Assembly: GCA_000004695.1 (NCBI GenBank)
Contig: CM000153.2
Location: 5,088,001-5,152,000 of the forward strand
Direction of reading: 5' to 3'
DNA from: Dictyostelium discoideum
Taxonomy: Eukaryota
DNA: 64,000 nt
This document shows, piece by piece, positions 44,945 through 49,659 of the stretch (positions are counted from its first letter, which is position 1; each line of letters starts with the position of its first letter). Below the pieces are notes generated by a model, which worked only from the letters and a program-made list of their open reading frames with translations, searched no databases and had not been told where the DNA came from. The position numbers and the translations under genes are program-made.

Positions 44945-46730
44945 TTAATTAATTTGAGTATTAACTAAACCACCAGCAACACCATCAACAAAATTATCCA
45001 AAAACTTTTTAGTGATTCTAGTATAATTTGTAACTTGTTCTTTCCATTTTATAAATGCTTGATAATCTTCCAATTTATCTAAACTTTGTTCATATTGAGT
45101 TGATAAAAGATTGGTATGTTTTTCGAGATCTTCTTGAAGGTATTCGAAAAGATTACGTTCTTGAGATTTTTTATCCAAATAGTAACCATAGACATAGGAG
45201 TATTGTAATACACGACGATTCTTTAATAACTGTTCAGTTGCCTCCATAAGGAATTTGGTATCAGCCGATCTAACATCGAATTTACTTAAGATTTGTTGTT
45301 CCTTAAGATGTGCGTTCCTTCTTTGTTCATCGGCGATCTTCATAGCGTTTCTATGTGATTCATATCTGTGGTAGTAAAACATATATGCCTCTAATTCAGT
45401 TTTAGCATCATGTGCTTTATCATCATCTTCTTTGGCTTTTGATTTATCATATTTGTTACAATTGTAATAACCACCAGTGGTTGAACCATGTTCAGTCCAT
45501 GGACCACGACATAGCCAACAAAATTCAAATCCACAACCACCTGCATTCTTTCTACATGTCATATGCATACAACCACCTTAATTTTATAATAATAAAAATA
45601 AAAAAATAATGAAAATTAGTATAAATAAATTTTTTTAAAAAAAAAAAAAAAAAAAAAAGTTATAATTTACTTACCATTCTTTTCAATTGGACTACGACAT
45701 TCTGGACATTTTTTAGTATTTGCTAACATCCAAGTTACATTTTCAGATTCATCAGAAGCTTTTTGAAGCCATTTGTCAACTTGACTACATGGACATGGCA
45801 TATGATCACCAATTTCATAATCATTACAATTGAAACAATATTGGAAACCACATTTACAATTAACTGCTTCTTTACGTTCTTTACGATCGCATCTAATAGA
45901 ATATATACAACCAGGAGCTGGACACCATTTAACTTGTGGATTATCATCTACATATGATTTCAAAATAAAGTTATTGAAACGTTCAAACACTTCTGGTGAT
46001 ACAATTTGTTTGAATGCATCTTGATGTACGATTACTTTACATTTTGGTGCTGGACATGGTGTATAAATACATTCAGGTCCTTCACTAACTTTTATCTCTA
46101 AATAGTTTTTATAACATGGTAAACAATAACGATGATTACAAATTAATGCAAATGTTTGTGTTGGTGGGTAATCTTCTAAACAAATTAAACATGAAACATT
46201 TCCACTCTTTTCTACAATTGTTGCATTTAATTTCATAACATTTGGTACACCTGCATCTATACATAATTTCTCTGGATTTTCCATATATCTTTCAATTAAT
46301 TTTTCTTTATTCCATCTATAAAAATAAAACAATAATAATAAAAATAAAAAAAAAATAAAAAAAAAAAAAAAAAAAAAAGGTTAGAATTTATAAATTATTT
46401 AAAAAAAAAAAACTTTTAAAAATAAAAAATTAAAACTTACTTCATATGTCTTAATAAAGTTGAAACAGCAGCTTCAGATGGAATACTTAAAACATCTTTA
46501 ACTTCTTTTATAATTTTATGAGATTCTGAGAAAAGATCATCTTTATTTAAAACTTCAAAACTCTTTTGTCTTGTTAATTTACCTAGAGATCTTTGTGGTT
46601 GGTTTTCATCAAAATCAAACTCTTGGGTTGCTGCATCATCATATTCTGTATCATCTAATGATTCGTTTCCTGACTCTTCGGCTGAATCATCATCTACATC
46701 ATAATCTTCATACATTTCATCGTCTGTCAT
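44945..46730 (-). CDS. Ariadne-type RBR (RING1-IBR-RING2) E3 ubiquitin ligase, 517 aa. Three exons: complement(join(44945..45576,45675..46306,46441..46730))
   Basis: Seen in sequence: exon 1 is an acidic N-terminus 'MTDDEMYEDYDVDDD...STLLRHMK'. After a GTAAGT donor, exon 2 continues 'WNKEKLIERYMENPEKL' (cf. ARIH1 'HFKWDKEKLMERY'). It holds RING1 ('CLICLEDY..CNHRYCLPCYKNY') and the IBR ('CPAPGC..CKCGFQYCFNCN'), and ends 'CPECRSPIEKNG' before a GTAAGT donor. Exon 3 begins 'GCMHMTCRKNAGGCGFEFCWLCRGPWTEHG' (RING2/Rcat, cf. ARIH1 'DGGCNHMVC..CKAEFCWVCLGPWEPHG'). This is followed by the Ariadne C-terminal helical domain. The exon lengths sum to 518 codons. It is probably the Dictyostelium ariadne homolog (rbrA-like). 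I did not assign the symbol. Confidence 0.85.
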
Positions 46731-47284
46731 TGCGGTTGAATTATTTAGTTTTTGTTTTTTATTTTTACGTTCTTGTGATGAATTTGGTTGTTGTTGTTGT
46801 TCAGAATCACTAAAATTGCTTAGTTGTTTGTGTGAATCTGTGTTGTTATTACTAATATTTTCTGCTTTTACTGTTGCTGCAGTTTTGGTTGTTGTTGTTG
46901 TTGTTATTCTTTTTTAATTTTTTTTTACCAAACCAACAATTATTATGTGTGATTAGGTATATTATATATTTTGTTAAAATATATATATGGGTGTATAAGT
47001 GTGCGTTTGTGTTGTGTTGTGTGTGTATGTATGTATGTATGTGTGTGAGTAAATATATATAAATAATAATTATAAAAATAAAAAAAGAAAAAAAAAGTTG
47101 ATGTGTGATATAATATTAAATATATTTTATAAAATATGGTGTTTTTTTTTTTTTTTTATTATTATTATTTTATTTTTTATTTATTTTTTTTTTTTTTTTT
47201 TTATTTTTTTACTTTTTTTTATTTATTTTTATTTATTTATTTATTTTTTTATGTACAAAAAGAAATAATTGTGGTGTGTTTTAA

Positions 47285-47315
<31 letters not shown>

Positions 47316-47447
47316 TAAAAAAAAAAAAAATTAATTTTTTGTTTTTAATTAAAAAAAAAATGAAAATAAAAAAAAATAAAAAAAAATAAAATTAAAAAAA
47401 AAAATAAAATAAAAAATAAAATAAATATAAAAAAAAAAAAAAAAAAA

Positions 47448-47560
47448 AACATTTATAAAACATAGTTTTCTCACGAATATGAAGTTACTAAAAAAAAATT
47501 AGAATAACGCCAAATTTTTAGTAAATTTATATTCGTGAGAAAACTTTGTTTTATAAATTT
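47448..47560. repeat. Near-perfect ~30-bp inverted repeat (palindrome) with a ~30-bp loop, in the divergent promoter region between the ariadne gene and the 48274 gene
   Basis: Seen in sequence: left arm 'atttataaaacatagttttctcacgaatat' (about 47451-47480). Right arm 'atattcgtgagaaaactttgttttataaat' (about 47529-47558) is its reverse complement with one mismatch. The loop is 'gaagttactaaaaaaaaattagaataacgccaaatttttagtaaattt', which is itself partly self-complementary. The flanks are 100% A/T homopolymers. Confidence 0.75.
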
Positions 47561-48273
47561 TTTTTTTTTTTTTTTTTTTTTATTTTTTCAGTTATTTGTT
47601 TTTAATTAAGGAAAAAAAATAAAAAAAATTGGAATTGTCCTAATTTTTTTTTTTTTTTTTTTTTATTTTTTTTAATATTTCCATACGGATAAAATTTTAG
47701 AATAAATATCCTCTTTCTAGAATGTTTGATCTTTTACATTTTATTTATTAAATAATATTACAACCCATTTAATATAAAAAATAAATAAAAAAACAAAAAA
47801 AAAAAAATAATTTTAATTAAATATTTACAATTAAATAAATACCAATCATATTTTAATAAACAAATAATAATATTTTTTTTCCAAAAAAAAAAAAAAATAA
47901 AAAAATAAAAATTTATAATATCTAAATGGATAATATTGTATTATAAATAAAAAAAAAATTTATAATATCGAAAAATCGTTATCAGTAAAAAAAAAAAATA
48001 AATAAATAAAATACATAAAAAAATACTTGTTTACAAAAAAATGATTTTTTTTTATTTTTTTTTTATTTTATTTTTTAATTTCTTTTTTATTTTTTTTTTA
48101 TTTTATTTTTTAATTTTTTTTTTTAATTAATTTTTATAAAAAATTTTATATTTTTTTTTTCTTTTTCTTTTTTTTTTTTTTTTTTTGACACTTTGGATTC
48201 ACACCACTTTAAAAAAAAAAAAAACTAAAAAACTAAAAAAAAAACTAAAATAAAAAAAACAAAAAAATACACA

Positions 48274-49659
48274 ATGGATAATGGTAATAATAATAATAAT
48301 AATAATAACAATGAAAATAATAATGAAAATAAAGATTTTATAGTGGTTGGTGGGATGACATTTTCAACAAATTTTAGAAGAAATAAACCTGCACCAGTAA
48401 TTCAAGCAAATTTTAATAATAATAATAGTTTTATTGGTAGCCCAACAAATACAAATACAACAGTAGCATCGATAAATTCGCCTCAAAATAATAATACCAA
48501 TAATACCAATAATAATAATAATAATAATAATACCAATAATAATATTAATAATACAAATTCTAATAAAAATAATAATAAACAACAACCACAGCAATTTAAA
48601 AGAAGTAAAAAGAAAGATAAATCAAAAGATAAAAAAAACTATCAAGAAGCATTGGCTAGTGGCATGACTGTTGAACAATTACAAAAACTTGAACAAAAAA
48701 AGAATAAAAATCAATATAATGGAAAAAATAAAAAGAAATTACCCTCCTATAATAACAATTTAAATAATGGTCAAATAGATGGCCCAAATAGTAATAGATC
48801 ACCATATGCACCAGTTGATAATAATAATAATAATAACAATAAAAAAAATGGCAATGACAATAAAAAGAAAAAGAGAATTGATACTATAAATAATTTAGAT
48901 CCAATACTATATGATGAAAATCAATATTTGACAAAATTAGAGAAAGAAGTTGAACAATCAAGAGAAAACGAATTAGTTGGTTTCATAAATGATATGAGTT
49001 TTTCAGAAGAAGAAAATAATAATGACGATGATGATGATGACAGTGACGATAATCAAGATGAAAATAATAATAAAAATAATAATAGTATTAAAGATATTAA
49101 AAATAATAAAAATAAAAACAATAGTATTAGAAATAGCAATGATATTTTAAGAAATCTTTCATTTGATGATTCTGCTGATAAATATTTATTTGGTGGACAA
49201 CCAAAAAATAAAAGTAAAAAATATAAACAACAACAACAACAACAGCAACAGCAACAACAAAACAGAATTAAAAAAGTAGATTCAAATGGTAATACAGAAG
49301 ATGAAGAGGAGAATAATAATAATAATAATAATAATGAAAAATTAGATAGTGATGAAGAAATTGATTTAGATTTAGAGGCATTATCATATAAAAAAAGATG
49401 TAGACTTCAAAGAATTCATTCAAAAAATAACAAAACTAAAAAACAATATAAATCAAAACATACTGAAAAGGTTTCATTTATTGGTGGCTCTTATCTTAAT
49501 GATGTTTTTAATGAAGAGAATACTAATTTAGAAAAGAGTTTTTCACCACCACTTTTACCAAAAAGAGTATCATTTGTTCAACCACATCAAAATGAAGTTA
49601 TCATTTTGTCATCATCGAGTGAAGATACTCCTCAACAAAATTCAAATCAAGTCGTACCA

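Follow-up and report, generated by a model that had tools for sequence, protein, structure and literature searches.

A near-perfect palindrome in promoter DNA of Dictyostelium discoideum: a possible inverted duplication of a core-promoter segment

Introduction

Between the 5' ends of two divergently oriented genes on chromosome 4 of Dictyostelium discoideum lies a long, near-perfect palindrome, and the question raised by this locus is what kind of element it is and how it might have arisen. The palindrome is contained in the 64-kb stretch of DNA analyzed here (the window, chr4:5,088,001-5,152,000), whose G+C content is 18-28% and whose open reading frames bear long poly-Asn runs. An initial annotation had proposed that the inverted repeat could be a regulatory element shared by the two promoters, the terminal inverted repeats (TIRs) of a MITE-like insertion, or an unannotated structured RNA. 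Among these three readings the shared regulatory element has proven the best supported, on account of its geometry and of its location upstream of the likely transcription start site (TSS) of the ariadne gene, but it has to be recast in terms of mirrored TATA/poly-T core promoters. Recast in this way, the sequence suggests, tentatively and with somewhat less than even confidence, that a core-promoter segment was duplicated locally in inverted orientation, which would have given rise to back-to-back, outward-facing promoters. As a kind of feature the element is ordinary, namely an unannotated palindrome in promoter DNA that is single copy in the sequence searched.

Anatomy and Non-Randomness of the Palindrome

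The palindrome extends from 47451 to 47558 and is made up of two complex arms (47451-47494 and 47515-47558) that are complementary at 41 of 44 positions (Table 1). Together with the homopolymer runs on either side, A21 and T24, it occupies about chr4:5,135,429-5,135,581 (window position plus 5,088,000). The two 30-nt arms that had been described initially are indeed present, at 47451-47480 and 47529-47558, with one mismatch between them, but the loop of approximately 48 bp ascribed to them was wrong, as pairing extends 14 nt further inward and leaves a loop of 20 nt. The arms mismatch at 47463/47546, 47481/47528, and 47484/47525, the second of which forms a G-U wobble in the plus-strand RNA. 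The 44-nt arms thus harbor two mismatches and one wobble, and no indel separates them despite their many short runs. If the flanking A21 (47429-47449) and T24 (47558-47581) are included, the arms reach 66 nt, of which 62 are matched. Outside of these runs, the in-register palindromic similarity of the flanks was not significant in alignments (z between -1.1 and 1.6), which speaks against a larger, degenerate palindrome.

Folding calculations underline the strength of this symmetry. A 131-nt segment was predicted to fold as RNA with an energy of -51.1 kcal/mol for the plus strand (z -14.5) and -47.6 kcal/mol for the minus strand (z -12.8), and the 110-nt core reaches -45.4 kcal/mol, or -0.41 kcal/mol/nt (z -14.2). 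Folded as single-stranded DNA, a segment of 154 nt yields -51.9 kcal/mol (z -12.4). The palindrome is confirmed as real and lies far beyond chance: the runner-up among the GC-containing inverted repeats of the 64 kb has 20 matched pairs, and in 60 shuffles that preserved local composition, inverted repeats never exceeded that same number. Both the description of the element as isolated and the claim that its core word occurs nowhere else in the window were borne out, as no comparable inverted repeat was found elsewhere in the 64 kb, where GTTTTCTCACGAATAT is confined to the two arms. The core also stands out as an island of higher G+C content, with 20% versus 7.6% in the rest of the region from 47278 to 48190, while non-expressed intergenic DNA of D. 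discoideum averages 13% (Rosengarten 2017, PMC5295588).

Table 1. Coordinates of the palindrome and of promoter-like features around it (window numbering).
Feature	Position	Strand	Remarks
TATAAAAT + T16 module	47128..47157	+	Points to the palindrome from ~300 nt on the left
A-rich on the plus strand (poly-T on the minus strand)	47283..47330	-	Just upstream of the likely ariadne TSS
A21 on the plus strand, T21 on the minus strand	47429..47449	-	Leftward oligo(dT) tract; predicted TSS ~47427
TATAAATg, 7/8 of TATAAA(A/T)(A/T)	47450..47457	-	Relaxed module list; midpoint 24.5 nt before the end of T21
Left complex arm ATTTATAAAACATAGTTTTCTCACGAATATGAAGTTACTAAAAA	47451..47494		41/44 complementary to 47515-47558
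Asymmetric spacer/loop, 20 nt, AAAATTAGAATAACGCCAAA	47495..47514		Densest G+C word of the element is ACGCC
Right complex arm TTTTTAGTAAATTTATATTCGTGAGAAAACTTTGTTTTATAAAT	47515..47558		Complementary to the left arm
TATAAATT, exact match to TATAAA(A/T)(A/T)	47552..47559	+	Strict module list; midpoint 25.5 nt before the end of T24
T24, A, T6	47558..47588	+	Rightward oligo(dT) tract; predicted TSS ~47583-47591
TATAAATT + T15 module	47883..47917	-	Points to the palindrome from ~320 nt on the right

A second D. discoideum assembly, GCA_054883475.1 (CM142510.1), is 99.76% identical to the window over 25 kb, with 8 SNPs. The hairpin is the same in both, and the adjoining T run counts 24 residues in one and 22 in the other. 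All seven differences between the two assemblies in the intergenic region are differences of homopolymer length (at 47283-47305, 47558-47581, and 48168).

Several shorter repeats are found in the vicinity. Two exact direct copies of a 15-nt word, TTTGTTTTTAATTAA, lie on either side of the palindrome, at 47338-47352 and 47595-47609, its only two sites in the window; they do not adjoin the ends of the arms, and the rough probability of such a repeat arising by chance in this low-complexity DNA is ~0.3. Another exact 15-nt direct repeat, AAAATTTATAATATC, occurs only at 47908-47922 and 47955-47969 in the window, with its copies 47 nt apart. Situated approximately 300 nt upstream of the ATG at 48274, it is a candidate promoter element for the right-hand gene. 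The inner arm and loop sequence AAAAAAAATTAGAATAACGCCAA (47490-47512) resembles the reverse complement of TTGGAATTGTCCTAATTTTTTTT (47629-47651), 125 bp to the right, at 19 of 23 positions, a likeness comparable to that of 21-mers matching by chance elsewhere in the window.

Gene Context

The divergent setting described initially was retrieved, with an ariadne/IBR gene on the minus strand whose ATG lies at 46730 and an open reading frame on the plus strand that starts at 48274. The coding region of the former, 44945-46730, spans 1786 nt, and this gene can be equated with DDB_G0286961, because the entry for the latter (chr4:5132945..5134730, minus strand) has an identical span (supplementary table of Rosengarten 2017, PMC5295588). 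IBR, UBA_ARI1, and Ariadne domains are present in its product, whose relatives in other organisms go by the name ariadne-1; the protein-database matches included no Dictyostelium ariadne protein. The gene name of DDB_G0286961 is presumably rbrA. The start codons at 46730 and 48274 have their midpoint at 47502, and the palindrome is centered within 3 nt of it (47504.5), which may be a coincidence.

The position of the ariadne TSS is suggested by an antisense transcript model, CUFF_3890_1, which covers 46270-47277 of the window on the plus strand with its right end at chr4:5135277, and for which 164 antisense reads were counted against 20732 sense reads, or ~0.8% (Rosengarten 2017, PMC5295588). 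Such a share is about what strand errors in the library would produce. The model may therefore represent bleed-through of the sense mRNA, in which case its right end would mark the ariadne TSS at ~47277. As the model stops just past the minus-strand T tract that runs from 47330 to 47283, the main TSS of the gene appears to be located near 47277-47281. With a TSS at ~47280, the palindrome would lie about 170-280 bp upstream of it. Both flanking genes seem to possess proximal T-tract/TSS regions of their own, near 47280 and near 48190, respectively.

A gene call on the second assembly (L001 15966-18864, minus strand, corresponding to ~44945-47846 of the window) lengthens the ariadne protein to 601 residues by starting approximately 1.1 kb upstream and running across the palindrome. 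This extension looks like an artefact of gene prediction, because the sole ATG available there (47849-47847) opens a frame of 10 codons. The small open reading frames over the palindrome itself are poly-Phe and poly-Lys artefacts of the A/T runs. In the upstream or leader region of the ariadne gene, a GT-rich block at 46984-47048 has the appearance of a (TG)n/(TGTA)n microsatellite and is CA-rich on the sense strand. On the other side of the palindrome, an island of complex sequence of ~100 nt (47676-47778) has, on the minus strand, a T-rich tract ahead of it (47822-47778) and poly-A after it (47675-47646), a layout that matches that of a short Dictyostelium transcription unit; this island yielded neither a folding signal (z 0.06) nor an Rfam match.

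Core-Promoter Layout of the Palindrome Ends

Transcription units of Dictyostelium follow a simple grammar, in which, on the sense strand, TATAAA(A/T)(A/T) precedes the TSS by ~29 bp, a poly-T tract stops ~2 bp before the TSS, and poly-A begins just past the end of the transcript (Chang 2012, PMC3371697). The TATA/poly-T layout of core promoters is traced, as cited in Chang 2012 (PMC3371697), to Kimmel and Firtel (1983), and the same point about T runs before transcript starts has been made in another study (Liao 2018). Read outward, both ends of the palindrome conform to the TATA and poly-T rules in their geometry, the sole property compared. The two outward start sites predicted in this manner, ~47427 on the minus strand and ~47583-47591 on the plus strand, are about 160 bp apart. 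Each end being a copy of the other, their fit to a promoter counts as one observation rather than two. Among the lncRNA and antisense models searched from Rosengarten 2017 (PMC5295588), none ends at 47427 or at 47583-47591.

Modules composed of a TATA element and a T run are enriched, with nine in the 64-kb window against 0.46 in shuffles of matched local composition, and four of the nine fall in this one intergenic region of 1.5 kb. At least two of the other seven, on the other hand, sit in an intron and in the 3' flank of the ariadne gene. The word TTTATAAA is self-palindromic and occurs 30 times in the window. On both strands poly-A lies ahead of the core and poly-T behind it, which, by the grammar of Chang 2012 (PMC3371697), places it outside transcripts.

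The motifs known for Dictyostelium transcription factors found no match in the palindrome. A STAT-like reading of TTCTCACGAA (TTCN4GAA) was set aside, because the STAT sites of Dictyostelium are TTGA-based. An E2F-like reading of the loop (TTTGGCGT on the minus strand) was dropped, for lack of supporting motif information in Strasser 2012, and a scan for bacterial promoters and terminators is uninformative for a eukaryotic sequence.

Searches for Known RNAs and Further Copies

A known RNA family was excluded, as nothing in the whole 64-kb window reaches an Rfam gathering threshold. When the search was relaxed over 46900-48300, the best match over the hairpin was mir-276, with 16.1 bits against a threshold of 62 and an E-value of 1.1. 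The DUSE of Dictyostelium class I RNAs and snRNAs, [AT]CCCA[CT]AA, is located ~60 nt before the RNA start. This motif has two matches in the window (1329 and 56915), fewer than expected by chance, and neither is near the palindrome, so that a DUSE-driven small ncRNA gene was rejected. Arm k-mers were found neither in the locus table of Liao 2018 nor in the candidate lists of Edelbroek 2024 and the supplements of Meier 2016. Among the lncRNA and antisense models searched from Rosengarten 2017, none ends within chr4:5,135,000-5,136,199 except the one stopping at 5,135,277.

Further copies of the element were sought in the 64 kb with a 16-mer search (up to 3 mismatches), blastn-short with the 110-nt unit, and a 21-mer scan (up to 4 mismatches), all of which returned the arms only. 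In the JGI metagenomes, the two-arm pattern and a 24-mer arm pattern each gave 0 matches. The 13 matches of a 17-mer to viral contigs are attributed to chance, as none extends and none has an inverted partner. A target-site duplication, for which a check had been recommended, was not found either; the only candidate for one is the self-complementary dinucleotide AT. An exact-string search of the literature with the palindrome returned merely an unrelated yeast paper, and nothing bearing on this locus was found in the literature on MITEs, thug-S, and bidirectional promoters.

Origin and Possible Function

The sequence shows the anatomy of this element, its non-randomness, a single copy in the DNA searched, and a fit to the published promoter layout; a duplication origin and any promoter or regulatory activity are inferred. 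In the common upstream region of DDB_G0286961 and its neighbor, ~45-66 bp of promoter DNA would have been copied in inverted form. The duplicated segment would comprise a TATA box, the oligo(dT) tract downstream of it, and ~35 bp of G+C-containing upstream sequence, and the outcome would be two mirror-image core promoters, TATAAAT with T21 directed leftward and TATAAATT with T24 directed rightward. The core of ~90 bp between the putative TATA boxes would then contain two inverted copies of a 17-nt G+C-containing box and the unique 20-bp center. Acting as DNA, the element might be kept free of nucleosomes over ~160 bp by its poly(dA:dT) tracts, each TATA box might seat one outward-facing initiation complex, and the duplicated box could represent two sites for one and the same factor. 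The capacity to form a hairpin or a cruciform would in this scheme be a by-product of the origin of the element.

Several observations are consistent with such mirrored promoters, including the location 170-280 bp upstream of the likely ariadne TSS, the G+C island formed by the core, and the excess of TATA/T-run modules over shuffled sequence. The way in which complementarity continues through A21 and T24 as an inverted relation and then stops also fits a duplication of ~66 bp better than an insertion. On the other hand, transcripts starting inside the palindrome would have unusually long 5' UTRs of ~690 nt, nearly equal on the two sides, unless they were unstable non-coding transcripts. The module of TATA and T run is, moreover, non-specific, as its occurrence in an intron and a 3' flank illustrates, and the whole 44-nt arm has been kept, including its parts made of A and T only, which is silent on selection for binding sites.

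The initial proposal of an unannotated structured RNA would correspond to a hairpin-RNA gene, a Pol II transcript of which would fold into a stem of 44-66 bp and be cut into 21-nt small RNAs by the Dicer-like DrnB; inverted duplication would then have created a young proto-miRNA or hairpin-siRNA locus here. The energy of the 110-nt core passes the criterion applied to D. discoideum miRNA hairpins, a folding energy below -0.2 kcal/mol/nt (Liao 2018), and at -0.41 it is just outside the range of accepted D. discoideum hairpins (-0.43 to -0.70 for 101-151 nt). Most miRNA loci of this organism are intergenic, and its pri-miRNAs start at a G after a T-rich run, 116-281 nt upstream of mir-5p; a T-rich block ending at G47253 is found 197 nt upstream of the hairpin, but such blocks are common in this DNA. 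The modules at 47128 (plus strand) and 47917 (minus strand) aim toward the hairpin as well. Nevertheless, no miRNA locus is reported at chr4 5,135,3xx-5,135,6xx by Liao 2018, who lists coordinates and DNA sequences, and the hairpin is missing from the supplements of Meier 2016 and from the candidate lists of Edelbroek 2024, in which miR-1177, used as a positive control, was found. None of the intergenic lncRNA models searched, from stranded, rRNA-depleted RNA-seq across development, covers the locus, and the grammar of Chang 2012 (PMC3371697) puts the core between transcription units. The arm 21-mers have no other match in the window at up to 3 mismatches, and the Rfam matches over the hairpin are at chance level (E about 1). 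Altogether, a hairpin-RNA gene is unlikely. Still less probable, and by some distance, is a mobile element, be it a MITE or a foldback element, in which two 44-bp TIRs would surround a 20-bp remnant of an internally deleted DNA transposon. The architecture of long inverted termini around a short unique center, at ~110 bp in total, is MITE-like, and D. discoideum does possess DNA transposons, some of which yield hairpin small RNAs (thug-S). The idea of MITE termini finds no support, however, in the sequence searched, with no second or even partial copy in the 64 kb, no match in the JGI metagenomes, and no viral-contig match that extends or has an inverted partner. In place of a direct target-site duplication there is an inverted pair, A21/T24, through which the complementarity of the arms continues into the flanks. 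The transposons known from D. discoideum are concentrated around tRNA genes or in repeat-rich regions, and the window contains no tRNA gene.

More serious than either of these, though doubtful in its own right, is the view that the palindrome is a neutral relic, an inverted duplication produced by fold-back or template switching in an A/T-rich spacer, functionless as DNA or RNA, whose promoter-like ends are incidental. It accords with a single copy in the 64 kb that has no match in Rfam or the literature and, among the models searched, no transcript model covering it, with TATA-like words and T runs that are common in the genome and combine into modules in non-promoter contexts as well, and with arms in which none of the three differences over 44 positions looks compensatory. 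The two assemblies, which differ by merely 8 SNPs over 25 kb, are uninformative on constraint. What speaks against a relic is that the core is a clear G+C island, with 20% compared with 7.6% around it and 13% in the non-expressed intergenic DNA of the genome, that the arms have remained without an indel although they are rich in short runs, and that the element occupies the regulatory zone upstream of a gene, at the center of the intergenic region. It has also been considered that the palindrome as a whole is the functional unit, as either a young, DrnB-processed proto-miRNA locus or a bidirectional promoter dependent on its symmetry, which we regard as improbable. The proto-miRNA locus could in that case have been born by inverted duplication of promoter DNA, and the promoter could depend on symmetry via cruciform extrusion or via symmetric binding of a factor.

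No outcome would much alter current views, but each would have its own bearing. If the mirrored modules are used, they would offer a clean natural case of one inverted duplication giving rise to a bidirectional promoter, in a genome where the rules of promoter layout are unusually simple and easy to read. A symmetry-dependent promoter would illustrate a one-step route from inverted duplication to a pair of divergent promoters. If the element is transcribed instead, the few miRNA-like loci of Amoebozoa would gain a very young hairpin. Should neither be the case, the locus would show that palindromes this close to perfect can survive in the spacer DNA of Dictyostelium, where hairpin-based gene finders will flag them.

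Comparison with Known Systems

The palindrome shares features with several types of inverted repeats. Similar to cruciform-extruding AT-rich palindromes, it is A/T-rich, near-perfect, and stable when folded as single-stranded DNA, at -51.9 kcal/mol, but its arms are much shorter than those of the cruciform-extruding repeats, its spacer measures 20 bp, and between the two assemblies no instability was seen at the palindrome except in the length of the T run. With MITEs and foldback transposons, including thug-S, it has in common small size and long terminal inverted repeats around a short center. It differs from them in being single copy in the sequence searched, in having no target-site duplication, and in a symmetry that runs into the flanking homopolymers.

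Among RNA loci, the miRNA hairpins of D. discoideum such as mir-1176, mir-1177, and mir-7097 (Liao 2018; Edelbroek 2024) are likewise intergenic stem-loops of ~110 nt. The energy per nucleotide of the palindrome is near their known range, and T-rich runs followed by G are found 200-300 nt upstream. In contrast to them, it is missing from the published locus tables, is directly flanked by A21 and T24, and has a longer, almost perfect stem, with two mismatches and one wobble in 44 pairs. Young plant MIRNA and hairpin-RNA loci also have long, near-perfect stems, implying a fairly recent inverted duplication. Unlike for the plant loci, no donor or target gene was identified for the palindrome, and its duplicated DNA is promoter-like rather than coding-like.

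The remaining comparison is with the core promoter of Dictyostelium. The palindrome departs from it in that two mirror copies of one sequence are joined via a 20-bp spacer, and in that both neighboring genes seem to have separate proximal promoters. Yet each of its ends consists of TATAAAT followed outward by a T tract of 21-24 nt, with 24.5-25.5 nt from the TATA element to the end of the tract, and the polarity of A runs before T runs on the plus strand is the one expected of two divergent promoters.
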